Source of the DNA: a virus
Lineage: Duplodnaviria; Caudoviricetes
Virus record (IMG/VR): IMGVR_UViG_3300030433_000503
Coordinates: 1 to 46,899 of that record
DNA length: 46,899 nucleotides
Strand: one strand, 5' to 3'
The stretch's first letter is position 1. Each line of letters opens with the position of its first letter. The notes under the pieces were generated by a model. That model had not been told where the DNA came from. It worked only from the letters and a program-made list of their open reading frames with translations, and did no database searches. Positions 15,309 to 33,657 of this stretch are shown here, piece after piece. A program made the translations under genes and the position numbers.

Positions 15309-17684
15309 TTACACCATTGGAGGTGTTGATTGTTCAAAGTTTATAGGAAGTCCATCATTTTTTCTTTGTGAAATCATTTCACTTTGTTGAGTACCTTCCA
15401 TTTTTATTCTTTTATCTTTTCTATCCTCTCTTTGTTGTTCTCTTGTATTTGTAGCATTTTGTTGTAATTGAGCTAGCTCCATATCATTTTTATGCTGTTG
15501 CATTAATTTTTGTTGATCTAATCTAGCTTGTAACTGCATACGATCTTTTTCAAACTCACTTTTAGCTTTTTCATATTCTACGTTAGCTCCAGATATAGCT
15601 TGTTGTTTTTGTACTTCTGCCATAGCTGTTTTTTCTGCAGCAGCTGATTGAGCTTCGCTTTGAGCCTTAATATTAGCTTGTTGAGCTAATTGATCTTGTT
15701 TAGCTTTTTCTTTACGTTTTACTTTTAACATTTGATTAGCTAGTTTAAGATTTTTAATTTGTCTTAAATCAATAGCATCTTCAACATCAATGTTTTTAGC
15801 TTGTAAAGCTATTTGTATATTAGCTTCTAATTGTTGTTTTTCTTCTTCATCTGGTTCTAGTTCTAAGAAAATACCAAAATCATGTAAGTTAAGATTAACA
15901 ACTTCGTCTAATGTTTTAACATTATATGTTGATATAGAGTTTTGCAACGCAGATCTTGTTAATGGAAATTCTAGTGCATCAGCTACTTTTAAGCTAATAT
16001 TTTCTGCTAATTTAAGAGTTAAAAATAAACTAGACTGTACAATATGTCTTGTTGCTACATTTGATGCGTTAGCGGCTAGTTTCTGTAATCCTACAAGCGT
16101 ATTACGGTCTGGTAAACTACCATCTCTAGCTTCGTTTAGTCCCGTTACGTCTCTTATCATCTGTAAATAGTATTGATACGTGCTTATAAGACTTTGTATT
16201 TTACCTGCACCAGTTCCAGAATTAAGTTCTTGTATTGGAACTTTACCTGGATTCATATCACCTTCTTGTGTTAAACTTCTACCAACAATACTACCAGTTT
16301 GAAAATACATATTTAATGCTTCTGCTGGGTTATAATTAGTACCATTTCCTAAATCAACTTCAGCAAGCCCGTCCATATCTAAATAAACACCATCTGGTAC
16401 CATGCGAGATATAACTTGTTGTAGTTTTAAATGTGTAATTTGAATCATATCAGCAAAACCAGTACATTTACTAACTAGTGATTCTATTTTACCTTTATAA
16501 ATTCTAGGTGCGCATATAGCATAATTCATTTTAACTTTAGTAGTATCAGCATAAGGTCTTGACATATTTTCAGCAAGCTCCCATTTAAGCATTGTATTAG
16601 TACCTAAAACTTTAGCACCGCTATATAATACTTCAATTGATCTTGATACTCTTTCAAACATATCATTTTCTGGCGGATTAAACGTATCTGGCTTTTCAAT
16701 AGCTTTCATTAATCCTTGATCTGTTTGTTTTATTTTAAATACTTGATTATGATATGTTTTGTAATCAAAATATAAAACTTGCACTGTGTTTTCATCATAA
16801 TCACCCCAACCAGTAATATAAGATTTATTACCTGGCATAGACTGTATTCTTTTTAATTCATCTTCTGATATATTAGGAAACTCTTTTTTAAGTTCAGAAA
16901 TAGTAATCGCTTTTAACTCACCTACATAATATATATCTTCAAAATTTGGATCTTCTGTGTAAGAATAAACCATGTAAGCTGGGTCAACGTAATCAACTGT
17001 TATACCTTCAGCAGTATTAAAATTAGTTTTAGCAGCTGCTATACCACAAACTGTTAAATCCATATTTAATCTACGTCTAATTAAATCATATTTGTTTTGC
17101 GCAAAAACACTTGATATAGATTCTTCTTCTGCTATTTCAACACTTTGTTTATAAGACAACTGCATGTGAAGCTCTAGTTCTTCTTTTGTTTCAGGCATTA
17201 TACCAGTGCTAGGAGTTTGATATAAATCAATACCTAACGTGTTTTTTAAATTATCTAAATATTCTTTAGATAACATGTCTTCGTATATTTTAGAAGCGTA
17301 GCTAGTTCTTTTCTTTATAGACTCAGGATCTTGAGCATATGCTTTTATATCATAAGTTTTTGATGATATACCGTTTACAACTATATCTACAAATTTTGAT
17401 AAAATTGGTACTGGCTTCCAGTCTAAATTTAAATATGATAAATCACCATTAATAGCTAACTCATCTTTATATTTTTGTATAGACTGCTCACCTCTTGCAT
17501 AAGATCTTAGCATGTGGAAATTATTCCAGTTAGTTAAGTATCTATTACCACTAGTCCTTCCTCTTTGAAACCACTCTTGCTCTATAGCTTGAGCAACTTG
17601 TTTCCCATACTCAATACTAGCTTTTTCTGCGTCACTTACTACTTGACTTGGAAAAGGACTATTAGTGTTAGTGTATATATTCAT
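15309..17684 (-). CDS. Portal protein
   Basis: 791 aa directly after TerL; WKPVPILSKFVDIVVNG, IRDVTGLNEARDGS, Gln-rich coiled-coil barrel at the C-terminus. Confidence 0.88.
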   Translation of the reverse strand: MNIYTNTNSPFPSQVVSDAEKASIEYGKQVAQAIEQEWFQRGRTSGNRYLTNWNNFHMLRSYARGEQSIQKYKDELAINGDLSYLNLDWKPVPILSKFVDIVVNGISSKTYDIKAYAQDPESIKKRTSYASKIYEDMLSKEYLDNLKNTLGIDLYQTPSTGIMPETKEELELHMQLSYKQSVEIAEEESISSVFAQNKYDLIRRRLNMDLTVCGIAAAKTNFNTAEGITVDYVDPAYMVYSYTEDPNFEDIYYVGELKAITISELKKEFPNISEDELKRIQSMPGNKSYITGWGDYDENTVQVLYFDYKTYHNQVFKIKQTDQGLMKAIEKPDTFNPPENDMFERVSRSIEVLYSGAKVLGTNTMLKWELAENMSRPYADTTKVKMNYAICAPRIYKGKIESLVSKCTGFADMIQITHLKLQQVISRMVPDGVYLDMDGLAEVDLGNGTNYNPAEALNMYFQTGSIVGRSLTQEGDMNPGKVPIQELNSGTGAGKIQSLISTYQYYLQMIRDVTGLNEARDGSLPDRNTLVGLQKLAANASNVATRHIVQSSLFLTLKLAENISLKVADALEFPLTRSALQNSISTYNVKTLDEVVNLNLHDFGIFLELEPDEEEKQQLEANIQIALQAKNIDVEDAIDLRQIKNLKLANQMLKVKRKEKAKQDQLAQQANIKAQSEAQSAAAEKTAMAEVQKQQAISGANVEYEKAKSEFEKDRMQLQARLDQQKLMQQHKNDMELAQLQQNATNTREQQREDRKDKRIKMEGTQQSEMISQRKNDGLPINFEQSTPPMV

Positions 17685-19904
17685 TTAACTTATAATTTTT
17701 GATGTCGATCCTTTATTGTTATATTTTTTAATACCTAAATCAACAGGTTTTAATTCTCTTGCGGCTACTGGGGTGTATCTATGTTTATTACACGCCATTA
17801 AAGCTAAACCTGAACTAATCGAAGCATCATGAGTTGTTCTATTGTTTATATTAAATTTTGCCCAATCTTCTAATGTTCTTTGAAAATACATATCTCCATA
17901 TCCTGTTTCTTTTAAACCCACAAAATGTTCTATGTATGTTTCAATAGCAGCTGCATGAGCTTGTTTTATATCTTCACTAGAATTAGGTATACCACCTATT
18001 TCTCTTTCTGTAACTGATAATTTATTTCTTACTTTATCAGGTCTATTCATTGCAAAACCTCTATAGCCTCTACGTTTAAAATAATATAAAAGTCTTGGTT
18101 TATTATTTTCTACAAGTATTGGCATACCATAAAAAACACACGCCATTAATACATCTTCAAAAAATATTTCAGCTGTTTGAGGTCTAGCTATATATTCTAA
18201 GAAAAAATGATTTGGTGGAGCATTTTCCATGCTAAATTTTGTTAATCCGTGCAAAGAACCATTTGAACCTCTTTTATCTACAGTTCCTGATATATCATAA
18301 GGATCGCAACCAAAAGCACCCATATGTTCATTGCTAGGATAATTTACACCATTTTTAATATATCTTCTGTTTTGTACGTTTATATCTGGTATCCAAGTAA
18401 TAAAAAATCTTCCTTGTTTATTTGGTATAAATATAACTTTAGTATCTTGTTTACTATCTTCCCATTGAAAATTACCTTGAGTTACACTTATACTATTTTT
18501 TAAATCTTCATTAAAATCTATTTGTTCATATATTTTAGTTAGATTAAATAAAGATTGTTTTGACTCATCTCTAAAAGCATGTTTAGTTGTACGAGGAAAC
18601 TGTCTATAAAATTCATTTAAAGCGTCTTGATCTTGCTTCAAACCTTCTACTTCATTATCCCAATATTCTATAACACCTTGCTTTATTAATACACCATGAG
18701 GGTCTTTAACTTGTTTTTTCGGTGTATCGAATACAGGTAATCCATAAGAATCAATGTATCCTTCGTAATTCCATTCCATAGGTATGAACAAACTATATAA
18801 TCCTGAGCGAGTCTGTCCATTGCTGTTTCTTTGTGTGACATCTGAGTTATCATATAATTTTTTAAATTCTTTACCACCTTTATCTAAAGAGTTTGATGTT
18901 GAACCCATCATACACTTTCCAATAATTCTACTACCTAATCTTAACGTGGTTTTCGTAACCCTCCAGTTGTTGAGGATGTTGTTCGGCTTTTCCCATTTAC
19001 CGGACTCGTCGTGAACGAGAAGTTTGAGTTTCTCACCGTCATAGGAGTTGTCACCTGTGTTTTTCCAATCGATGGTGGTGTCAAGACCTTGTAATTCGTC
19101 TTGTAAGGTTTCGTCGGCTGGGGCGGTAAGCTTACGACGGGTATACTTGGTTGCGGGGACACGGTAGGCAAGCTCGGTCTTTGGACGGTCCATTCCGTCC
19201 TGGGTCGGTTTGAAAAAGAAGGGATAATTAACTGATATGGGTACCACCTTATCTGTGAACATCTTCTTGGCATCAGGACCGGACTTGGATAATATACCAT
19301 ACCTACTGTCACTTGATATGGTTGCCAGGTTAACCACCTCTCCTGAGGCCATGAAAGAAAACCCGGAACGCCTGTTCTTAAGGTAACACATCCCATAGGA
19401 TCGTGAATCTGCCTTGCAAGCTTCCCAGAAAATAAAGAATAATCGATTTGACTCCCTAAAGTCTGGTGCCCCGACGTCAATCTTAGACCACTGCAGGTAC
19501 ATGTAATGAGTACCACTAATATAAGTAGGAACGTCTTTGTTATAAAACCAAAAACCTTCTTCCCTACGGGTAAACTCGTTGTCAATGTAATCATACCATC
19601 TTTCTTTAAAATCTTCTGGATATTGTTTAAAATCAAATACTGTTTTTATTTTACTTAAAACTTTAGGATATTCAAATCGGCTCCATTTATTATCTTTAAA
19701 CTTATGAATACTTTTTGCTTTTGGTAAAGCTATTTTAAGATTTTGTATTTCATATATATCACCTATTGTACCGTCTTTGCTAATAATAACCATATCATGC
19801 TGATCATTATAACCATACTCCCATTTTTTATGTTTATTATATTTTTTAAGAGTACTAGGTGTAATATAATCTTTTAGTATTGTATATAAAGTTTGCTTAT
19901 ACAT
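17685..19904 (-). CDS. terL: Terminase large subunit
   Basis: Walker A LKNRRSGFS, Walker B LLVHDESGKW, motif III MGSTSN, nuclease FGCDPYD...HDASISSGLA. Confidence 0.92.
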   Translation of the reverse strand: MYKQTLYTILKDYITPSTLKKYNKHKKWEYGYNDQHDMVIISKDGTIGDIYEIQNLKIALPKAKSIHKFKDNKWSRFEYPKVLSKIKTVFDFKQYPEDFKERWYDYIDNEFTRREEGFWFYNKDVPTYISGTHYMYLQWSKIDVGAPDFRESNRLFFIFWEACKADSRSYGMCYLKNRRSGFSFMASGEVVNLATISSDSRYGILSKSGPDAKKMFTDKVVPISVNYPFFFKPTQDGMDRPKTELAYRVPATKYTRRKLTAPADETLQDELQGLDTTIDWKNTGDNSYDGEKLKLLVHDESGKWEKPNNILNNWRVTKTTLRLGSRIIGKCMMGSTSNSLDKGGKEFKKLYDNSDVTQRNSNGQTRSGLYSLFIPMEWNYEGYIDSYGLPVFDTPKKQVKDPHGVLIKQGVIEYWDNEVEGLKQDQDALNEFYRQFPRTTKHAFRDESKQSLFNLTKIYEQIDFNEDLKNSISVTQGNFQWEDSKQDTKVIFIPNKQGRFFITWIPDINVQNRRYIKNGVNYPSNEHMGAFGCDPYDISGTVDKRGSNGSLHGLTKFSMENAPPNHFFLEYIARPQTAEIFFEDVLMACVFYGMPILVENNKPRLLYYFKRRGYRGFAMNRPDKVRNKLSVTEREIGGIPNSSEDIKQAHAAAIETYIEHFVGLKETGYGDMYFQRTLEDWAKFNINNRTTHDASISSGLALMACNKHRYTPVAARELKPVDLGIKKYNNKGSTSKIIS
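18941..19594 (-). CDS. Putative overprinted (+1 frame) lipoprotein/membrane-anchored protein nested in terL
   Basis: 217 codons from ATG 19594; KTFLLILVVLITCTC signal-like segment, W/Y/P-rich middle, P/S/T/R-rich tail; boundaries coincide with a GC-rich island. Confidence 0.55.
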   Translation of the reverse strand: MITLTTSLPVGKKVFGFITKTFLLILVVLITCTCSGLRLTSGHQTLGSQIDYSLFSGKLARQIHDPMGCVTLRTGVPGFLSWPQERWLTWQPYQVTVGMVYYPSPVLMPRRCSQIRWYPYQLIIPSFSNRPRTEWTVQRPSLPTVSPQPSIPVVSLPPQPTKPYKTNYKVLTPPSIGKTQVTTPMTVRNSNFSFTTSPVNGKSRTTSSTTGGLRKPR

Positions 19905-20182
19905 TATTTAGACCTCCCTTCTGCAAAACCTTTAAAATTTGATTTTTTCTTTTCTTCAACTTTAGGCTTGTCTTCTAACATATTTTTTTCTTCTTCAATA
20001 CGATTAAGTATTTCAAAAGCATCGAATATAGCTAGTTTTTTTGTAGCTGCAGCATTTTTAAGTCTGTCTGCGGAAATATCAGGACCATAATCTATAATAG
20101 GTTCTTTAGCAACTTTAATTAACTCTTTAACTGCTACTTGCCCAGCTTGGATTATATTCTTCTTCGTTTCCTTGGTGCTCAT
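19904..20182 (-). CDS. Putative terminase small subunit
   Basis: 92-aa helical protein directly upstream of and abutting terL. Confidence 0.55.
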   Translation of the reverse strand: MSTKETKKNIIQAGQVAVKELIKVAKEPIIDYGPDISADRLKNAAATKKLAIFDAFEILNRIEEEKNMLEDKPKVEEKKKSNFKGFAEGRSK

Positions 20183-20732
20183 ATTTAATTACAATATCAT
20201 TTGATTCCATACAATATAAACGCTTACCATCTACTAAAAACTGCCACTCTCTATTTGGTTTAAAACCAACTAAGTCACCTTCGTTTATATTAAGGTTTTT
20301 TAAACTCGTATTACCGTATTTTAATATACCTTTTAATTTTTGTTCTTTATTTGTAGTAAAATCACTCTTATCTTTTATTGGGTGCACAAAACACCTGTTT
20401 GCAAATGAATGCCAACCTTTATAGTTTTTATATAAATATATTTGATCTAAACTTACAAAATAAAGATTATCTTTAAACCATGATCTACTAACTTTTTTAT
20501 TACCACGCATGTCATAAAAAGTTCTAAATACATTTTGATGTATTACAATAGTATCACCTTTTTTAATTTTTGTTTTAAAAGCAATTGGTGTTTCAATTAC
20601 TTTAGCTAGTCTATTTATAAAAGTCCATGATTCAATTTTAGTATTAACAACTAGTTTTTTATCACCAACTTGTATTTCATTATTATATTTATCACCTAAA
20701 GGTTCTACAATAAAATCATATAAGCTTTTCAT
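20127..20732 (-). CDS. Tandem GroES-like co-chaperonin
   Basis: Two GroES-like units: FIVEP...IKKGDTIV...VSLDQI and RCFVHP...INEGDLVGF...VDGKRLYCMESNDI. Confidence 0.6.
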   Translation of the reverse strand: MKSLYDFIVEPLGDKYNNEIQVGDKKLVVNTKIESWTFINRLAKVIETPIAFKTKIKKGDTIVIHQNVFRTFYDMRGNKKVSRSWFKDNLYFVSLDQIYLYKNYKGWHSFANRCFVHPIKDKSDFTTNKEQKLKGILKYGNTSLKNLNINEGDLVGFKPNREWQFLVDGKRLYCMESNDIVIKYEHQGNEEEYNPSWASSS

Positions 20733-20956
20733 TAATACTCTAAATCGTATTCAATTGATATAGCCATGTTAGAATTAAACTTTTTCCACGGCAATACTTC
20801 ATTGTTTTTCTTTATATAAATGTTATAAGAACTATCAGAATCTTCAAATAAAATATGTGATATTTCATGGCCACCATAAACTTGTTGGCCAACTGCGTAA
20901 TGCATTGCATCATTTTTATAATCAGTTCCAATACTGATTTTTCTAATGTTATGCAT
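20732..20956 (-). CDS. Hypothetical protein
   Basis: 74 aa, translationally coupled to neighbours. Confidence 0.7.
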   Translation of the reverse strand: MHNIRKISIGTDYKNDAMHYAVGQQVYGGHEISHILFEDSDSSYNIYIKKNNEVLPWKKFNSNMAISIEYDLEY

Positions 20957-21197
20957 CTTTTTCTTCTTCCTTTATTTCTTCATAAGTACCATTAGCTAAA
21001 TTAATATTAACTTTACCGTACTCTTCTTCTAGTTCTAGTTTTGTTTTTTCAATTTCTTCACTAATATTTTTAACTTGTTGTGCTAAATTGTGTTTTTGTA
21101 CTTCTAAAACACCAATATTAGTTAAGACATCATTTAATCTTTTTTGTTGATCAGTTATTTTTTTTAACTGATGATCTGTTATTTTTTTAACTTCCAT
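20949..21197 (-). CDS. Small coiled-coil protein
   Basis: 82 aa with heptad pattern, ending YGKVNINLANGTY; first gene after a class II promoter. Confidence 0.7.
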   Translation of the reverse strand: MEVKKITDHQLKKITDQQKRLNDVLTNIGVLEVQKHNLAQQVKNISEEIEKTKLELEEEYGKVNINLANGTYEEIKEEEKDA

Positions 21198-21605: not shown

Positions 21606-23336
21606 TTATGTTATATTATTTGTTAATTCTGCCATTTCAGAATCTGTTAATGTTCTTCTAAATACTTTTACATCTTTAACTCTTCCGTAAAAATTATTAC
21701 CTGTAGATCCATCGTATGGTATAAAACCAAATTTATCTAATTTACCGTTAAACGTAAAAGTAGAGTTGTTTGTAAAACTTTGTGAACCATTTACAAAAGC
21801 AGTAATTTCACCTGTTTTATATCTTATAGCTACTTTAGCAAACTTATTTAAGGTTTCTGTTGTTGTTAAGTTTATACTATTAGACATCGCGTTTACACTA
21901 GCTGCTCTTACTTGAAAACTCCAATTTGAACCACCGCCTCTAAATAATAACAACCTATTATTAGAACTACTTTCCTGCGAAATACCTATACTTGTTTGAT
22001 TTGGATTTGCAAATCCTAACTCTGTAAACTCTACATACATTGTTCCTTCTTGGTTATTAAAAACCCCTCTTTGACCTGCGTTATCACACAATTCTACATT
22101 TCGAGTTACTGTAGAATTAAATGTTGGTATGTAGCTTGTGCAATAGCCTGTTGTTTCAGCTTGTACACCAAACATATATAAAAAATTACTTCCATCTCGT
22201 GTAATGTTAAAATTACTACTTAATGTAGCCATACCAATAACAAAACTACCTTGAACATCTGTTGTTGTTAGATTACTAATAGAGCATCTGTACCATCCAT
22301 TACCATAGTTTTCTATTTTTATATTAGAATGATTTACACTAGCTGATGAAACAGTTCCTGTATTAAGATTGAAAAAAGTTTGTCCATTTGCTGAAGCATC
22401 AAACCCACCTGTACTTAAATAAGCAAAATCAGTTGAGCCTTTTTTAAGAAAAATAGAAAAAGTATTAGTATCTCCACTTGTTACGGTTGTAGCGTAATAA
22501 GCTAATTGAGAAGCTCCAATAGAACCATCATTGTTATCAGTAAGTTTCCAACTACTATTAGTACCATCAGGAACAGTAATACTACTAGCTGTTAATACAG
22601 AATTATTAGCATTTGGACTACTACTACCATCAAATATATCTCCTTTAGTAAAATTATTAGAATAAGTAGCTGTGTTTGTTGACTGCGGCTCAAGCAATAA
22701 ACTTGGTTTTTGTAATTCTTTTGCTTTACCTATTTCTGTAAGATAATCTATTCTAGGTACATTTAAATTAACTTCTTTTAAAGATATATTAGTTATATAA
22801 AAACTACTATCATTACTAGCTGCATTTAAAGCATTAAAATGAAAAACATTGCCATTTGGTCCATCAGGAGAAGCATAAATCACGTAATCACCATCTTTAA
22901 ACTGAGTATAAGTAAAAAATTTACTACTAGCGTTAGAAAGAACCCACAATGCAAATCTAGCAAATTTACCTGGTTCTACTCCAGAAATAGTAAATTTTAT
23001 TTGATATGTTTTTGAAGCGTCTGTTACAAGAGTCTGTTTTAATCTTTGCGAATTTATTGTTTCATCATAAAAAGCTTTTCCATTAGCTATACTCCATGCT
23101 GGATCAATGTCCCAGTCAGTAGAACCATTACTAAAATCTCCATTAGTAACTAATTCTGTATCACTAACACCAGATACTTTTATGGTACCATTACAGTCTA
23201 CATATGTAGCTAATGTATTTCTTGTAAAATCTAATGGCTGAGGTATAAATGTTTCATGATCTGTAAAGTCACACGAAAGAACGTTACCAGATTTTGTTGC
23301 TGGTTTATTTGGTACTTCAAAATAATCTTTTAGCAT
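21606..23336 (-). CDS. Head-spike fibre-like protein, paralog 3
   Basis: DFTRNTLAT, PRIDY, LLLEPQSTN, YGNGWYRCS, TSYIPT..TVTR, LamG/ConA-like C-terminus, CBM-like NGDF insert. Confidence 0.65.
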   Translation of the reverse strand: MLKDYFEVPNKPATKSGNVLSCDFTDHETFIPQPLDFTRNTLATYVDCNGTIKVSGVSDTELVTNGDFSNGSTDWDIDPAWSIANGKAFYDETINSQRLKQTLVTDASKTYQIKFTISGVEPGKFARFALWVLSNASSKFFTYTQFKDGDYVIYASPDGPNGNVFHFNALNAASNDSSFYITNISLKEVNLNVPRIDYLTEIGKAKELQKPSLLLEPQSTNTATYSNNFTKGDIFDGSSSPNANNSVLTASSITVPDGTNSSWKLTDNNDGSIGASQLAYYATTVTSGDTNTFSIFLKKGSTDFAYLSTGGFDASANGQTFFNLNTGTVSSASVNHSNIKIENYGNGWYRCSISNLTTTDVQGSFVIGMATLSSNFNITRDGSNFLYMFGVQAETTGYCTSYIPTFNSTVTRNVELCDNAGQRGVFNNQEGTMYVEFTELGFANPNQTSIGISQESSSNNRLLLFRGGGSNWSFQVRAASVNAMSNSINLTTTETLNKFAKVAIRYKTGEITAFVNGSQSFTNNSTFTFNGKLDKFGFIPYDGSTGNNFYGRVKDVKVFRRTLTDSEMAELTNNIT

Positions 23337-25393
23337 GGTATTGTATAGTTTCCTAACGCTGCCACCATACCAGAGTATGCTGAGTATTGCGTTGATGTTA
23401 TTGTATATAATTCTGTGTCTGTAAGCGCTCTGTTATAAGTAGCTAAACTTTTTGTTTTTCCGTAGAAAAAATCACCTGTGTTACCTCCTTTATCAAAATC
23501 AACACTTGAAAGTTGAGATAATGTAAAAGCTTGTGTTCCTATTTGTACTTGTACGCCGTCAATAAATAAAGCACAATCTCCTGTTTTAAATTTATAAGCT
23601 ACTTTGTGAAAATCTCTAATGTCTGTAACATCAAAATTTAAATTATTTACAGCACTTCCACCATCCCTTATTAAACCATTAATTCTATTAGTAGTTGTTC
23701 TAAACCTAATTACAACAGCTTCATTATCTGTGCCGTCATTTATTGATATACTTCTAAAAGTTAAATCATCAGCAAGCGCAGCTATTTCTGCATATAAAAC
23801 ACCCTCTGTACTATTAAAAGTATTTGCATTTCCAGCACTTGTACAAGTTTCAGCTACACGAGTTCCTGTAACTCCTGCTGTGGGTATGTAAGATGTTGGA
23901 TAACTTTGTATTTCAAATTGAGCTCCATAAACAAATGTCCCTTTAGTTCCATCACCTGTTACAAAAGCTGTATTATCTGCACTTGCTAGCTGTAGTCTAA
24001 CTCTACCGCTACCTGTTCCTGTAGCTGTTCTTGTAGCTGAACATCTATACCAACCATTTCCATAGTCTTCAATTTTTGCTGTTATACCAGCTTCAACTGT
24101 ACCTAAAGTTCCATTACTAATATTATACCAAGCACTAGCAGCGGTAAAAACACCACCTGTTGCTGTGAATCTCAAGTGAAAATAATCATAATCTAATTTT
24201 TTAACAAAACAAGATATAGTAACGTCATCTCCAGATGTTACACTTATTAATGTTGAATTATATATATATTGTTCACTAGTTGCGTTTGCTGAAACTAAAG
24301 TGTCTGCGTTTTGTATTCCTTCTGGAGATATTGTTTGATTTGAATTAACAGTACCACCTCCTTGAATAAACCAATAACTTTGCGCAAAATCTTCACTAAA
24401 TTTAAAAGAATTAGTAGACTGCGGTTCAAGTAAAAGATGTGGACAAGTTGGATTGATTGGATCGTAATCTAATCTTGGTCTATCGCCTTGTACTTCTACT
24501 AAAGATATATTGTCTATTGAGAAAGAAGTTCCACTTGTATTGCCATAAAAAGCTAAAGTGCTTTGGTTAGATGGCATATCAAACACAGTAATATGATTAC
24601 CATTTGTAAATGCTCTATAACTTAAACCCTCATAATTTACATTACCTACACTATTCCCAATCCAAATATTTGCATTTGCTGAAGCATCAGATATAGTAAA
24701 TGTTAATTTATATTTTTTTCCACTCGTTAATGTTAACCCTGATTGATATATAGCACTTGTTAGTGTATCATCAAAATTACCTTTATCAGTAATATCCCAA
24801 GCTACTCCGACACTCCAATCATCATCTGGATCAACTTGTTTTAATGATACGTTGTCTATTTTTCCTGTAAAATTTGTAAAACCTTTAAATCTAAAATTTA
24901 TACTCGCCGCGTTTGCTACAAAATATTGAGTAAATGTTCCGTTTTTATTTCTTGTTTCCAAGTTTTGTACAGGGTTACCACCTCCTGATAATTGAGGTCT
25001 CACACTGCCTGATACATAATCGCTAATAGTATATACTAATTTATAAGTTTTATTTGCTATAAAGGAAATACCTGTTTGTGATAATAAATTATTAGTAACA
25101 TTATTAGCAACAGCTTTACCATTACTTATACTCCAACCATCTCCTTTAGTCCAATTACTATCTGTAGCAAAATCTCCGTTAGTTATTAACTCTGGTCCTA
25201 ATTCACTAAAGTTTCCATTTCTAACTAACTCATCAGAAAAATAACCTACATTTTCTATTAATCCTTGATGATTAACACGAGTTGCCGCAGAAGCTCTAGA
25301 AAATTGAAAGTCTGTATCAATTCTATTAGGAAGTATGTTATGAACGCGCGAGTCTGACACTGCGCTAGGTAGCATTAATAATCCTGGTTTCAT
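23330..25393 (-). CDS. Head-spike fibre-like protein, paralog 2
   Basis: FSRASAATRVN, PRLDY, LLLEPQSTN, YGNGWYRCS, TSYIPT, LamG-like end; two CBM-like inserts. Confidence 0.65.
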   Translation of the reverse strand: MKPGLLMLPSAVSDSRVHNILPNRIDTDFQFSRASAATRVNHQGLIENVGYFSDELVRNGNFSELGPELITNGDFATDSNWTKGDGWSISNGKAVANNVTNNLLSQTGISFIANKTYKLVYTISDYVSGSVRPQLSGGGNPVQNLETRNKNGTFTQYFVANAASINFRFKGFTNFTGKIDNVSLKQVDPDDDWSVGVAWDITDKGNFDDTLTSAIYQSGLTLTSGKKYKLTFTISDASANANIWIGNSVGNVNYEGLSYRAFTNGNHITVFDMPSNQSTLAFYGNTSGTSFSIDNISLVEVQGDRPRLDYDPINPTCPHLLLEPQSTNSFKFSEDFAQSYWFIQGGGTVNSNQTISPEGIQNADTLVSANATSEQYIYNSTLISVTSGDDVTISCFVKKLDYDYFHLRFTATGGVFTAASAWYNISNGTLGTVEAGITAKIEDYGNGWYRCSATRTATGTGSGRVRLQLASADNTAFVTGDGTKGTFVYGAQFEIQSYPTSYIPTAGVTGTRVAETCTSAGNANTFNSTEGVLYAEIAALADDLTFRSISINDGTDNEAVVIRFRTTTNRINGLIRDGGSAVNNLNFDVTDIRDFHKVAYKFKTGDCALFIDGVQVQIGTQAFTLSQLSSVDFDKGGNTGDFFYGKTKSLATYNRALTDTELYTITSTQYSAYSGMVAALGNYTIPC

Positions 25394-27696
25394 AAAAATC
25401 TAGTTATATCGTGTTCCGTGCATTGTAATTCTTGATCAGCACCTATCATTTGCATTCTGCTTCTATATGGTATAAATAAATCGTGGTTGTTATACGATGT
25501 AAGGTTTGCAAGTTCTATATCTGTTAAAGCTGTTTTATATACTGCTATAGCATTTAAATCACCTCTGTATTCAGCTGAATTTGCATTAACTCCATTTGAA
25601 AAATGTAATCTATCTAGTCCAACTGGCATTGCTACAGTATTAGCTTGTATTCTTTTAATTCCGTCTACAAATACCGCGCAATTATTTAGTTTGTATTTAA
25701 CTGCTATTTTATGTTTTTGAGTAATATCAATACCATCAACATTACCGTTTAAACCACCACCAGCAGTACTTTGTATAAAACCTACAACTCTATAACTTGC
25801 TGTGTTTGGGTATGATATTACAACTCTATTTTGACCATTACCAGCATTTATACTAATACTTCTAGCAACAGCGTTATTAACTAAAGCTTTAGTTTCTATA
25901 AATAAAACACCTTCACTATCATTAAAAGTATCTGTAGTACCTAAACCAGAATTAATAGCTTTGTCTTCATTTCGTGTTACAGTTGAACCTTTTGTGTGTA
26001 TTAAAGATGTTACATAGCCAGCTTGCTCAACTTGTCTACCGTATATTAAAAACTTTGCATTTAAAACACCAGTACTAAAACTAGAAGAACTTGTGCCCGC
26101 TGTCATACCTAACCATTTAATACCACTTTTTGATGCGGCCGAGCCTGTTAATATAGTACAAGTAATTCTATACCAATTATTTTTGTGAGCTATTATTTCA
26201 CAATTATAAATATTAGTTGCTGATTGTGAAAAAGCTCCATTGCTTGAAACGCCTATAAAAGTACCGGTATTTAAATTAAATTTAGCGTATTGATTACCTA
26301 TATCTTGTTGATAAAAACCTAAACCAAAAAAATCTCCTGTAACTTTTTTTACATAACAACTTACAGAATAAACAGTTGTATTTGAAGTTGCAACACTTTC
26401 TACTCTTGGTTGACCTGTAGCAATAACTTCAATTTCTTCTGCATTGTTTATACCTTCAGGAGATAAATTATTAGATGAATTAATTTGTAAATTTAACAGA
26501 ACGTTACCTGATAAAGCGTTGGCTACGCTGTTTGAATTATTTACTAAATTTGTTCTTTGCGGCTCGGTTAAAAGCGATGGACAACCACCATATGTAGGAT
26601 AATTTAATCTTGGTAAATTTACTATATCAGTTGTTGGTAAATAATATTTTGTTTTATCGCCTTTTACTACTTGCGCGCCCCATATAAAAGCACTTAAAGT
26701 AGCAGCTCCAGCATTTGTAAGTCCATCACCTTCAGAAGGTGCTATAAAAACAGAGTTAAATGGTGAATTTTGATATGCCACAAAAGTATTGGCAATACGA
26801 TACCAACCGTTTCCAGCGTCTACTATTGTAGCTGATTCAGAGTTTACCGTACCAACAGCAATATTATCTAAATCAAACCAAGCACCCGTTTGAGCACTTG
26901 ATATGTGAGCTAATCTTATCCATCTTATAGAACTTATATTTTCTTTTTTAACAAAAACAGAAACAGTATATGTTTGACCTATTCGTAAAGACAATGAATT
27001 AGGTCTTATAAGACAAGGACCTGAACCTCCAGTTGTAATTAAAGCACCTTTAAAGGTATTTTTAGGAGACATTGTTTTATCAACTTCTACTGTCAGTGTT
27101 TGAAGACCCCAGTCGCCGTCAAAATTTTCACTATCTTCAATTAAATTATAAGGCACATCTTCTATATAACCTTCTTCATTAATTCTAGTTCCAGTGGTAG
27201 CGCGTGTAAATTCGAAGTCAGATCCTTGAATTTCTTCTTTTAAAGTTATATTAGAATAAGTAGTTGTACCTGCTGTATTATTAGATGCTCTAAAAAATAT
27301 ATTTGTAGTAGTAGAATCTGCTGTAAAACTTAACTCTAATCTTGTATCACTTGTGTTTAAATTAATATTAACACTACCTGAGTTTATATAAATACCACCT
27401 GCGCCTAACTCTCCTGTTGCGTTCGCTTTAAATAAATATCTTCTACCTACTATTGTAGTTGCACTAAATCTTGCACCTTGATTACCTCCACTTGTTACAA
27501 TAACTAATTTTTCATCTACAACATTTCTTGATACAGCTGTGTTATAACCAAACCATCCTGTTAAAGTTGCCACATCTGTTCCATCAGCAACTCCGTTAAA
27601 TTGTGTAACAATTTCTGGACCAAATACAGTAGGTCCACTATATAAAATACCGTCTCCATACATACTGGGAACTGTTAATACTGAAGGTGTTGCCAT
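25390..27696 (-). CDS. Head-spike fibre-like protein, paralog 1
   Basis: FTRATTGTRIN, PRLNY, LLTEPQRTN, GNGWYRI, LamG-like end. Confidence 0.65.
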   Translation of the reverse strand: MATPSVLTVPSMYGDGILYSGPTVFGPEIVTQFNGVADGTDVATLTGWFGYNTAVSRNVVDEKLVIVTSGGNQGARFSATTIVGRRYLFKANATGELGAGGIYINSGSVNINLNTSDTRLELSFTADSTTTNIFFRASNNTAGTTTYSNITLKEEIQGSDFEFTRATTGTRINEEGYIEDVPYNLIEDSENFDGDWGLQTLTVEVDKTMSPKNTFKGALITTGGSGPCLIRPNSLSLRIGQTYTVSVFVKKENISSIRWIRLAHISSAQTGAWFDLDNIAVGTVNSESATIVDAGNGWYRIANTFVAYQNSPFNSVFIAPSEGDGLTNAGAATLSAFIWGAQVVKGDKTKYYLPTTDIVNLPRLNYPTYGGCPSLLTEPQRTNLVNNSNSVANALSGNVLLNLQINSSNNLSPEGINNAEEIEVIATGQPRVESVATSNTTVYSVSCYVKKVTGDFFGLGFYQQDIGNQYAKFNLNTGTFIGVSSNGAFSQSATNIYNCEIIAHKNNWYRITCTILTGSAASKSGIKWLGMTAGTSSSSFSTGVLNAKFLIYGRQVEQAGYVTSLIHTKGSTVTRNEDKAINSGLGTTDTFNDSEGVLFIETKALVNNAVARSISINAGNGQNRVVISYPNTASYRVVGFIQSTAGGGLNGNVDGIDITQKHKIAVKYKLNNCAVFVDGIKRIQANTVAMPVGLDRLHFSNGVNANSAEYRGDLNAIAVYKTALTDIELANLTSYNNHDLFIPYRSRMQMIGADQELQCTEHDITRFL

Positions 27697-31432: not shown

Positions 31433-31869
31433 CTTGTTTTATCTTTGTTTAAATTATAAATTGCTTTTGTCATTACTTTATCCATATATGAAGTGCCAGT
31501 TATTATTTTATTTCTACTAGCAACGTTTATATCTTCATGACCAAGCATTATTCTATATATGCGCTGAATTAATTGTTTACCTTTAAATGATATTTTATAT
31601 ATATTATATTTTTGTGTAGTTCTATTTCTATTACGCCACACAACTATCCAATCATTTTGTATTAATTTATTCCATCTACGATTATTCCAACTGTACGTAT
31701 ATGTACCCGCTTTAAAATCTTTTATTGTAAATAAATCAATGCAATCAAGGTATATTAATAATTCTAAATCACTATCGGTTAAATTGTTGTTTTTGCAAGC
31801 CCATTTGCGTATTACTCGATAGTGTTTCATTAAGTTTAAATCCTTAATATCTTTTGCACTTAATCTCAT
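31429..31869 (-). CDS. Winged-helix (MarR-like) DNA-binding protein
   Basis: LTDSDLELLIYL...KLIQNDWIVVW...YKISFKGKQLI pattern. Confidence 0.6.
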   Translation of the reverse strand: MRLSAKDIKDLNLMKHYRVIRKWACKNNNLTDSDLELLIYLDCIDLFTIKDFKAGTYTYSWNNRRWNKLIQNDWIVVWRNRNRTTQKYNIYKISFKGKQLIQRIYRIMLGHEDINVASRNKIITGTSYMDKVMTKAIYNLNKDKTR

Positions 31870-32126
31870 AAAACAACTACAATATCTTGAGCTTTAATTA
31901 CACGATAAGATTTTTTATCAATTTCTATTTTATGACCAGCATGACGATCAAAATATATTTTATCATCTTGTTTTAATCCTACAACTTCATCACCTACCGA
32001 AACTATACTAGCTTCAACATATCTAATGTCTTCACGTTGGTTTTCTGCAAGAAGTAAACCACCTTTTGTTTTAGTAGTTCCTTCTTTTATTATATTTATT
32101 ATTAAATTTTTACCTACTGCTTTCAT
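31866..32126 (-). CDS. groES: Co-chaperonin GroES
   Basis: KTKGGLLL mobile loop, IVSVGDEV, VIKAQDIVVVL; adjacent to groEL. Confidence 0.88.
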   Translation of the reverse strand: MKAVGKNLIINIIKEGTTKTKGGLLLAENQREDIRYVEASIVSVGDEVVGLKQDDKIYFDRHAGHKIEIDKKSYRVIKAQDIVVVL

Positions 32127-33657
32127 CAACTCTAATATTATTAATTACACAATCTGTTGATAAAATAGTAGTTGCCACTGAAGCTGCATTTTGAAGAGCG
32201 CTTTTTGTAACTAACAGTGGATCAATAATACCACTATTAATCATCTTTACCATATTTCCTGTAACAACATCAATACCTTCACCATCTGAACCTGATATTC
32301 TATATTCTTCATATCCAGCATTAGCTAGTATTGTTTTATAAGGAGATAATATAGCTCTACCTAAAACTTCTTCACCTACATTTTTTTCTTTTATTTTTAA
32401 TGCAGCGTTTAGCAAAGCAACACCACCGCCGGGAACAATTCCTTCTTTTATTGCAGCTTTAGTAGCACATATAGCGTCTTCAACTCTATCTTGTTTTTCT
32501 TTTAATTCAATATCAGAGTTAGCGCCTACTTTTACTATTGCTATTTTGGCAGCTAACATAGCAAGTCTTTTTTCTAACTTAACTACTTCGTTTGCTGTAT
32601 TTTTTTTATTTAATTTATTTTTAATTTCGTGTATTACTTCTTTTACTTCATTTGAAGTATTTTTTACTTGTAATATAGTTTCGTTTTCAGTTGTAATGCT
32701 TTTTACACATTTACCTAAATATTCAACTTTAATTAAATCTAAATCATCACCTAAGTCTTCATTTATAATTGTAGCGCCAGTTAGTAAAGATAAATCATCA
32801 AGTAATTGTTTTCTATTAACACCATATGTTGGTGCGTCAACTACATTGATCTTAATATTACCTTTTATTTTATTCATAGCTAGAGCCGATAAAACACCTT
32901 TTTCTAAGTCGCCAATAATAAGCAAAGGTTTATTGTTTTTTATTACGTACTCTAGCACTGTTTGAATTTGTCTTATAGAATCTATTTTTGATTCTACTAA
33001 CAGCACTAATGGATTTTCTAATTCAGCTGAATGATTTTCAGCATTAGTTATAAAATGCCTATTGGTTAATCCTTTTTCATATTGTGCGCCTTCAACTAGT
33101 TTTATTTCTGTTTTACCAATAGCTGACGGCTCCATCATTACTACGCCTGTAAGATCTACAGCTCTAAATGCATCAGCAATTAATTTACCAAGCTCTGGAT
33201 CATTATTTGTTGATATTGTAGCAATGTGATCAATCATATCTCCTTCTACTGAAACAGATATTGATTCTAAATATTTTACAACTTTTTCAACAGCAGAGTT
33301 TATACCTTCTTTTAATACTCTTGAATTTGTTTTATCAGCAACTTTATATGCTTCTTGTAATATAGCATGTGCTAAGACTGTTGCAGTAGTAGTACCATCT
33401 CCTGCTTGTTGAACTGTTTTACGTGCTGCTTCTTTTAAAAGCGTAGCACCCATGTTTTCTACTGGATCTAACAAAATTACTGAGTCAGCTACTGTTACAC
33501 CATCTTTTGTAATAATTGGTTTACCTGTTGCGTCTTCAAGTAAAACACACTTACCGCTAGCTCCTAGTGTGGAGCTAACAGCTTGTGTAAGTTTTGTTAT
33601 ACCCTTAAATACTTGTTCTCTGGCTGTATCGCCAAAGTTCAGATTTTTAACTATCAT
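32110..33657 (-). CDS. groEL: Chaperonin GroEL
   Basis: ITKDGVTVA, AGDGTTTATVLA, GIVPGGGVAL, GIIDPLLVTKSALQNAASVA; lacks the GGM tail. Confidence 0.95.
   Translation of the reverse strand: MIVKNLNFGDTAREQVFKGITKLTQAVSSTLGASGKCVLLEDATGKPIITKDGVTVADSVILLDPVENMGATLLKEAARKTVQQAGDGTTTATVLAHAILQEAYKVADKTNSRVLKEGINSAVEKVVKYLESISVSVEGDMIDHIATISTNNDPELGKLIADAFRAVDLTGVVMMEPSAIGKTEIKLVEGAQYEKGLTNRHFITNAENHSAELENPLVLLVESKIDSIRQIQTVLEYVIKNNKPLLIIGDLEKGVLSALAMNKIKGNIKINVVDAPTYGVNRKQLLDDLSLLTGATIINEDLGDDLDLIKVEYLGKCVKSITTENETILQVKNTSNEVKEVIHEIKNKLNKKNTANEVVKLEKRLAMLAAKIAIVKVGANSDIELKEKQDRVEDAICATKAAIKEGIVPGGGVALLNAALKIKEKNVGEEVLGRAILSPYKTILANAGYEEYRISGSDGEGIDVVTGNMVKMINSGIIDPLLVTKSALQNAASVATTILSTDCVINNIRVDESSR

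Follow-up and report, generated by a model that had tools for sequence, protein, structure and literature searches.

Lipoprotein genes embedded in full within a late phage gene, in a different frame, have been described in lambda, where Rz1 is contained in Rz, and in T7, where gene 18.7 is contained in gene 18.5 (PMC6139136, in the sections cited here; NC_001604). Rz1-type o-spanins are rich in proline and lack clear secondary structure, and the same sections give [LVI][ASTVI][GAS]C as the lipobox consensus; widely separated spanin pairs are not detectable by the criteria of that survey (PMC6139136, section 15). T7 also carries two ORFs annotated inside its terminase large subunit gene, 19.2 and 19.3, of 85 and 57 codons, which are annotated as hypothetical and are compared here by annotation only (NC_001604). 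Overprinted viral proteins are often disordered, with a high content of Leu, Arg and Ser, according to the cited part of PMC8227390, whose dataset consists of small eukaryotic viruses. Candidate unimolecular spanins were noted in other flavobacterial phages (PMC8776804); the cited part of that work does not mention the gene reported here, and no prior report of it was found in the literature searched, mostly open-access texts without supplements.

The locus studied here comes from an uncultured tailed phage, of which a 46.9-kb fragment is available (the window, i.e., the whole stretch of 46,899 nucleotides that was analysed), which contains terL, portal and structural genes, GroES/GroEL and a holin-like gene. 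Within terL (terminase large subunit, 739 aa; 17685..19904, minus strand; phrog_6681, E 1.3e-163), a 217-aa ORF runs in the +1 frame of the same strand from the ATG at 19594 to the stop at 18941 (18941..19594, terL codons 104-321) and encodes a predicted lipoprotein. As with Rz1 and 18.7, this gene is wholly contained in another frame of a phage late gene, and its product shares with Rz1-type o-spanins a Pro-rich composition and the lack of clear secondary structure. However, its host gene encodes the terminase ATPase instead of the i-spanin partner, its candidate partner is encoded about 25-30 kb away, its mature chain has about 184 aa against 40 for the Rz1 type, and there is no sequence likeness; unlike Rz1 and 18.7, it is present, shortened or absent among close relatives. 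It shares its location with T7 19.2 and 19.3, but is much longer and belongs to an unrelated phage group. The overprinted genes in the cited part of PMC8227390, arisen de novo, similarly occupy part of the range of their host genes, are S/R/P-rich, predicted to be disordered and in the +1 frame, whereas the present gene belongs to a tailed phage, has an export leader at two positions and is apparently exchanged with a non-homologous ordinary gene.

The window terL is 31-44% identical (tblastn) to annotated terL of Elemovirus (43.5%), Pachyviridae (31-39%) and Pervagoviridae (36.5%), and because these matches are to phages of Flavobacteriaceae, a Bacteroidota host can be inferred. This phage group is abundant; we estimate that about 13,000 stored stretches in IMG/VR belong to it. 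Directly upstream of terL, a 92-aa gene (19904..20182, minus strand; 76-94% identity in five relatives) is the presumed small terminase by position, a family search giving no match. Two GroES-like genes, one of 201 aa beside the small terminase gene, and GroEL are found at 20127-20732 and 31866-33657, and three tandem paralogous tail-type genes (phrog_5939, 21606-27696) are absent from five compared relatives.

The nested frame in terL

The original prediction rested on hand counts of G+C in four lines of 60 bases (16, 31, 35 and 14), which a recount found exact, and on a GC island spanning the 217-codon ORF, which was confirmed: G+C reaches 0.456 against 0.285 in the rest of terL, and the ORF is the highest-G+C 600-base stretch of the window. 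The shift lies at third positions, since GC3 of terL is 0.52 in codons 101-320 and 0.12 and 0.14 in the flanks, and C fills the wobble position of T/C-degenerate terL residues of codons 293-320 at a frequency of 0.82, compared to 0.32 in closed genes and 0.28 in the flank. Because terL wobble positions are second codon positions of the nested frame, where S, T, P, R and W need C or G, the island is a third-position effect of the nested ORF and thus the footprint of a second protein, as had been proposed. The overlap covers two conserved frame-0 motifs on the minus strand: KNRRSGFSF (19353..19379, under the nested gene), which we take to be Walker A-like, is invariant in 55 relatives, and LLVHDE (19005..19022, under the nested tail), presumably Walker B-like, is near-invariant. 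Synonymous resampling with the region's own codon frequencies (20,000 draws) yields a mean of 5.8 stops in the nested frame and a probability of 0.00065 of having none. When 19 further long genes of the window were tested, none showed an alternative-frame stretch above 79 codons, and the longest +1 stretch in terL codons 330-739 of 207 genes has 107 codons.

The alignment of related terL genes that had been suggested as a check included 80 relatives with 75-93% terL identity and the window, a second terL-selected set being added later, and it revealed a frame kept open in diverged relatives. The +1 frame is open to codon 316-323 in 35 genes (full-length), to codon 293 in 18 and to codon 259-271 in three, whereas it is closed in 20; five genes are partial. 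Stops over terL codons 110-255 are distributed bimodally, with none in 73 of 131 genes, one or two in four and three to nine in 54. Codon choice discriminates by the following base: among Leu, Ile and Val codons of the 35 full-length genes, those ending in A make up 0 of 352 before A or G, a value that follows from the definition of the class, and 232 of 370 before C or T, which does not; the 20 closed genes show 103/194 and 158/204, respectively. A-ending codons are hence avoided only where a stop would result. Among open genes, 45% of the wobble sites that can be compared are different, which argues against a single recent sweep.

The gene has a narrower range than terL. The frame is closed in five of five distant phages, and a profile search with 149 hits revealed no free-standing homolog. 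Across these hits, 873 of 985 positions forced by terL match; the hits that were read correspond to terL in the +1 frame or to chimeras, apart from one candidate (P0144) rejected as a chance match. The nested gene has therefore probably arisen later than terL; gain and loss are not separated by the trees, which are unrooted. Length classes end at stops in terL codons 191, 259, 271, 293, 311 and 321-327. In three lipoprotein-bearing phages (L476 of G076, L478 of G087 and L479 of G074), the frame is open only to codon 191-193; G076 and G087 retain CTCSG with a stop at codon 191, which looks like decay of the nested gene, and all three loci are possible decay intermediates. Altogether, a frame longer than chance allows, kept open in diverged relatives over a range narrower than that of its host gene, leaves us nearly certain that the nested gene is real; by these comparisons it is an unannotated gene under selection, overlooked by standard gene calls. 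The open, short and closed alleles provide a natural series of the sequence before and after overlap.

An in-frame start codon precedes the leader in all 84 open genes of the window's clade (clade A) and all 56 of its sister clade (clade B), being ATG in 134 of 140. The ATG at 19594 lacks the A at -3 found at most starts of the window, and given this weak context expression is probably low. TAnnTTTG is the promoter consensus of Bacteroidetes. An internal promoter for the nested gene was rejected: this motif does not occur in the first 104 terL codons of the window, and that region contains it in 35 of the 136 genes with an open frame and in 38 of the 59 with a closed one.

Predicted leader and mature chain

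Residues 1-33 (19496..19594, minus strand) form a predicted signal peptide, based on hydropathy and a modelled helix, with K12, K13 and K20 followed by a hydrophobic stretch at 21-31. Over terL codons 125-134, the 84 open clade-A genes have a mean hydropathy of 2.82 and the 55 closed ones of 0.29. The features initially described, i.e., KK, TFLLILVVLI, TCTC, a W/Y/P-rich middle and a tail ending SSTTGGLRKPR, are all present, but the selected Cys of the putative lipobox is the second one, Cys34 (19493..19495, minus strand; T-C-T-C-S-G), which is the likely lipidation site. It is found in 83 of 84 open versus 13 of 55 closed genes and is followed by Ser in 70 of 84 versus 13 of 55. On the contrary, a Met of terL imposes the first Cys (55/55 closed genes), and three genes have lost it and kept the second. 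The residue before Cys34 is constrained by a terL Tyr that permits only T or I; T or S is present in 83 of 84 open genes (T in 79, S in 4), the four genes with S-C having gained it through a Tyr-to-Phe change in terL. T before Cys and a leader of 33 residues depart from the consensus lipobox, while a basic n-region and a hydrophobic h-region ending at a conserved Cys are recognizable in the sequence.

In the sister clade (terL about 63-70% identical), the start is at codon 90 in 50 of 56 genes and the hydrophobic stretch at codons 108-118. CTCSG is lacking, and the Cys lies about 16 codons upstream of that of the window clade, within I/T-G-S-C in 46 of 56 genes and GLC in 10, in a set collected mostly with a query holding the GSC pattern; the only closed control of this clade (L081) already has a terL Met-Cys yielding the Cys. 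Two leader positions in one frame lead us to argue that export itself is the selected property of the +1 frame. Seven loci (L139, L143, L144, L148, L150, L153 and L154) read G-L-C and then A-T-A-Q-Q or V-T-A-Q-Q in the +1 frame at terL codons 119-127; here the lipoprotein may have given way to a product of signal peptidase I with N-terminal Gln.

The middle of the product, residues about 82-125 (19220..19351, minus strand), is rich in W, Y and P. Trp is encoded at terL codons 190, 193 and 220 in 21, 27 and 25 of the 35 full-length genes, whereas most closed genes have a stop or Leu. The S/T/P/R-rich basic tail, residues about 140-217 (18944..19177, minus strand), coincides with the wobble C, is predicted to be disordered (pLDDT under 50) and is absent or shorter in short forms. 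The mature chain contains 21 K/R for 4 D/E. AlphaFold2 modelled the whole product with a mean pLDDT of 41, residues 12-33 being the sole helix and the rest predicted disordered. No match was obtained against PHROGs, Pfam, NCBIfam or PDB sequences, and the ESM Atlas returned only unnamed clusters at 0.89-0.90, with low recognition. The product has no C-terminal transmembrane segment, as a unimolecular spanin would, its tail being polar and basic.

The envelope protein originally proposed is thus favoured by a lipoprotein-like export leader with selected residues and a relocated counterpart in the sister clade, and we consider it quite likely that the product is a lipoprotein.

The lysis cassette and its stand-alone lipoprotein

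The absence of a visible spanin beside the holin-like gene had been taken as a hint to function. The holin-like gene is present, but no spanin is seen because the endolysin cassette is not part of the window, which is a fragment. In the closed relative G001, this cassette encodes an exported protein of 408 aa, a lipoprotein of 145 aa, a helical protein of 96 aa anchored in the membrane, and an endolysin of the peptidase-M15 type. The lipoprotein gene usually adjoins the endolysin gene and overlaps that of the 96-aa protein by 32 bases. Open and closed phages alike encode the exported cassette protein of 390-410 aa (L261:421-1647), which belongs to no family, as well as an exported thioredoxin-like protein (L262:2791-3189). 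The 96-aa protein is acidic and present in G012 and many relatives; it was not found in G056, G058 and G059, gave only E 0.041 in G061 and was weak in G057. Seven loci of larger phages without this terL (L284, L285, L298, L299, L306, L310 and L312) pair it with a different lipoprotein of 180-196 aa, so that this marker is recurrently found near a lipoprotein.

The stand-alone lipoprotein (L261:2095-2532; alignment A5, without the non-homologs L302 and L333) has no Pfam or NCBIfam family. Like the nested product, it consists of a leader ending at a Cys, an aromatic and Pro-rich middle and a basic S/T/P-rich tail, whereas it has a canonical S-S-C box, a mature chain of 106-129 aa richer in Asn and Tyr and a conserved motif, VLAVTxxGDT, with no counterpart in the nested product. 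The two are not homologous (hhalign probability 2.8%, signal only). They share the same three nearest named Atlas clusters, all below 0.9, which is a lead only. Some short-form carriers have, in the same cassette, a W/Y/F-rich lipoprotein of a second, unrelated family, also with a basic tail (L334:3560-4213, L336:3561-3980 and L340:1826-2497).

The two genes are nearly exclusive in their distribution. Sampling of 80 loci of the 96-aa marker provided 49 on long contigs that were searched, 28 of which held terL, and the exclusion set counted 38 records having both terL and the marker. Of the 18 full-length records, one has the stand-alone Y/W/P-rich lipoprotein, against 8 of the 9 short and 7 of the 11 closed ones (15/20 short or closed), with G037, whose ORF ends at 311, scored as full-length and two of the 8 short cases belonging to a different Y/W-rich family. 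This scoring leaves out the clade-A class ending at codon 293, whose contigs are too short; assignment of G044-G052 to the closed class from raw stop counts was rejected, as they are short open forms. Fisher's exact test gives 1.4e-5 on rows that are not independent, and among 7 independent pairs 4.9 point in the same direction and 0.1 in the opposite one (median p 0.0625).

A fresh test was made from 80 lipoprotein loci; the search covered the 34 that were new and lay on contigs >21 kb, and terL was present in 20 of these. These 20 lipoprotein-bearing records included 16 closed, 4 short and no full-length frames, compared to 35 full-length of 76 in the terL-selected set. With the fresh records, 6.1 of 7 pairs agree and 0.1 oppose (median p 0.031, range 0.016-0.219), in a pair set enriched for the lipoprotein by rows chosen for bearing it, in which G090 duplicates G044 in the tree and from whose tree G046, with frameshift-like errors, was left out.

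Individual records illustrate the pattern. G012, which shares 97% identity with the window across 15 kb, contains the entire cassette with no lipoprotein in it, whereas the cassette of the closed G010 (terL 89%) is complete with the lipoprotein. A six-frame filter set to accept T before Cys recovered the nested ORF as the sole plausible lipoprotein in G012 and in five near-complete records with the full-length frame (G003, G056, G057, G061 and G062), only the stand-alone lipoprotein in the closed G001 and two others in the distant closed G066. In G003 (L087-L090), about 10 kb with the cassette and replication genes is repeated at both ends with some divergence, possibly an assembly artefact. 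Short nested forms stay open beside the stand-alone gene, and the nested protein therefore has a use of its own. Replacement of the stand-alone lipoprotein by the nested gene appears probable to us. The function of overprinted genes usually cannot be assigned from sequence; here comparative genomics points to an ordinary gene that was apparently replaced, so that convergent de novo gene birth is open to a direct test by cross-complementation.

Candidate role and competing explanations

In the mechanism that we propose, the terminase ATPase domain is overprinted by a second gene in the +1 frame, which selection holds open. This gene would be translated from ATG 19594 on the late transcript of the packaging operon, and its product would be anchored as a lipoprotein at Cys34 and sorted to the outer membrane. 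There, it would substitute for the cassette lipoprotein at the outer-membrane stage of lysis with an o-spanin-like job, the long, basic and disordered chain spanning the distance from the outer membrane to an inner-membrane partner, for which the acidic 96-aa helical protein of the cassette is a candidate. We lean slightly towards this whole chain, i.e., an overprinted outer-membrane lipoprotein that may replace the cassette lipoprotein in the last lysis step. Counting against it are G015, which has both genes, the incomplete records with neither, the near-complete carriers in which the 96-aa protein is missing or weak, the atypical lipobox, the small number of independent pairs and the short forms that stay open beside the stand-alone gene. 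If the chain is true, phages scored as spanin-less can conceal their sole lipoprotein within an unrelated essential gene. The Rz1-like role first suggested is retained in part: near-exclusion with the lysis-cassette lipoprotein supports it indirectly, but the gene lies within terL, neither in nor beside an i-spanin, and its product has no likeness to known spanins in PHROG, Pfam, NCBIfam or PDB, so that it falls outside the Rz1 family. More tentatively, and with some doubt, the overprinted gene could be a non-homologous functional equivalent of the cassette lipoprotein, the two having been exchanged many times and both representing an undescribed class of long, disordered, basic o-spanin-like lipoproteins of Bacteroidota phages with a distant inner-membrane partner. 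In that reading, the length classes would be stages of gain or decay, the full tail being needed for replacement.

Phage lipoproteins such as Cor and T5 Llp block receptors. The main rival, which we hold to be unlikely, keeps the replacement but gives the lipoprotein a job in superinfection exclusion or in masking a receptor or transporter at the outer membrane. It can draw on G015, in which both genes are present and the stand-alone homolog (L383:1489-1911) lies among ribonucleotide-reductase and replication genes, away from the cassette, on five records with neither gene (G024, G067, G068, G069 and G073, all incomplete), and on the two exported cassette proteins, the one of 390-408 aa and the thioredoxin-like one, which have no known lysis role. 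On the contrary, the nested gene belongs to the packaging operon and the stand-alone gene usually sits beside the endolysin gene and overlaps that of the 96-aa protein, an arrangement in keeping with late expression.

Another reading, which seems to us rather improbable, is that the product is anchored uncleaved in the inner membrane or exported through signal peptidase I and is unrelated to the stand-alone lipoprotein, the exclusion reflecting shared ancestry. The atypical T before Cys, the long leader, the modelled helix 12-33, which could span a membrane, and the small number of independent pairs all leave room for it, and the GLC-ATAQQ subclade would suit signal peptidase I followed by the Bacteroidetes Q-rule (PMC5837995, in the part cited). 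However, selection acts on the second Cys, which persists in genes without the first, a change in terL itself gives four genes their S-C, the sister clade has GSC, and none of the 20 out-of-sample records was full-length.

That there is no second gene, the frame being opened by a GC-rich recombinant patch or by a constraint on DNA or RNA, is very improbable and already largely refuted. The GC rise does stop at the stop codon of each length class, as a patch of variable length would give and where cause and effect are inseparable on this evidence alone, and some closed genes group together in the segment tree, which indicates that recombination occurs. Nevertheless, stop avoidance depends on the next base, a frame without stops has the low probability computed above at the region's own codon use, some open forms have a GC3 as low as 0.31-0.35, three closed genes (L021, L032 and L058) have open neighbours in the segment as well as in the flank, leader hydrophobicity and Cys are selected, and an Rfam search of window positions 17000-21000 gave no match. 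Both refuting outcomes named in the original prediction fared poorly on these data, since relatives with stops also lose the island and a patch from a higher-GC phage is not supported.

Programmed frameshifting into the +1 frame to make a terL fusion is hardly credible, as the terL/+1 chimeras among database proteins that might suggest it change frame at many different places, like sequencing errors, whereas all 140 open genes have their own start before the leader and a signal peptide requires a free N-terminus.
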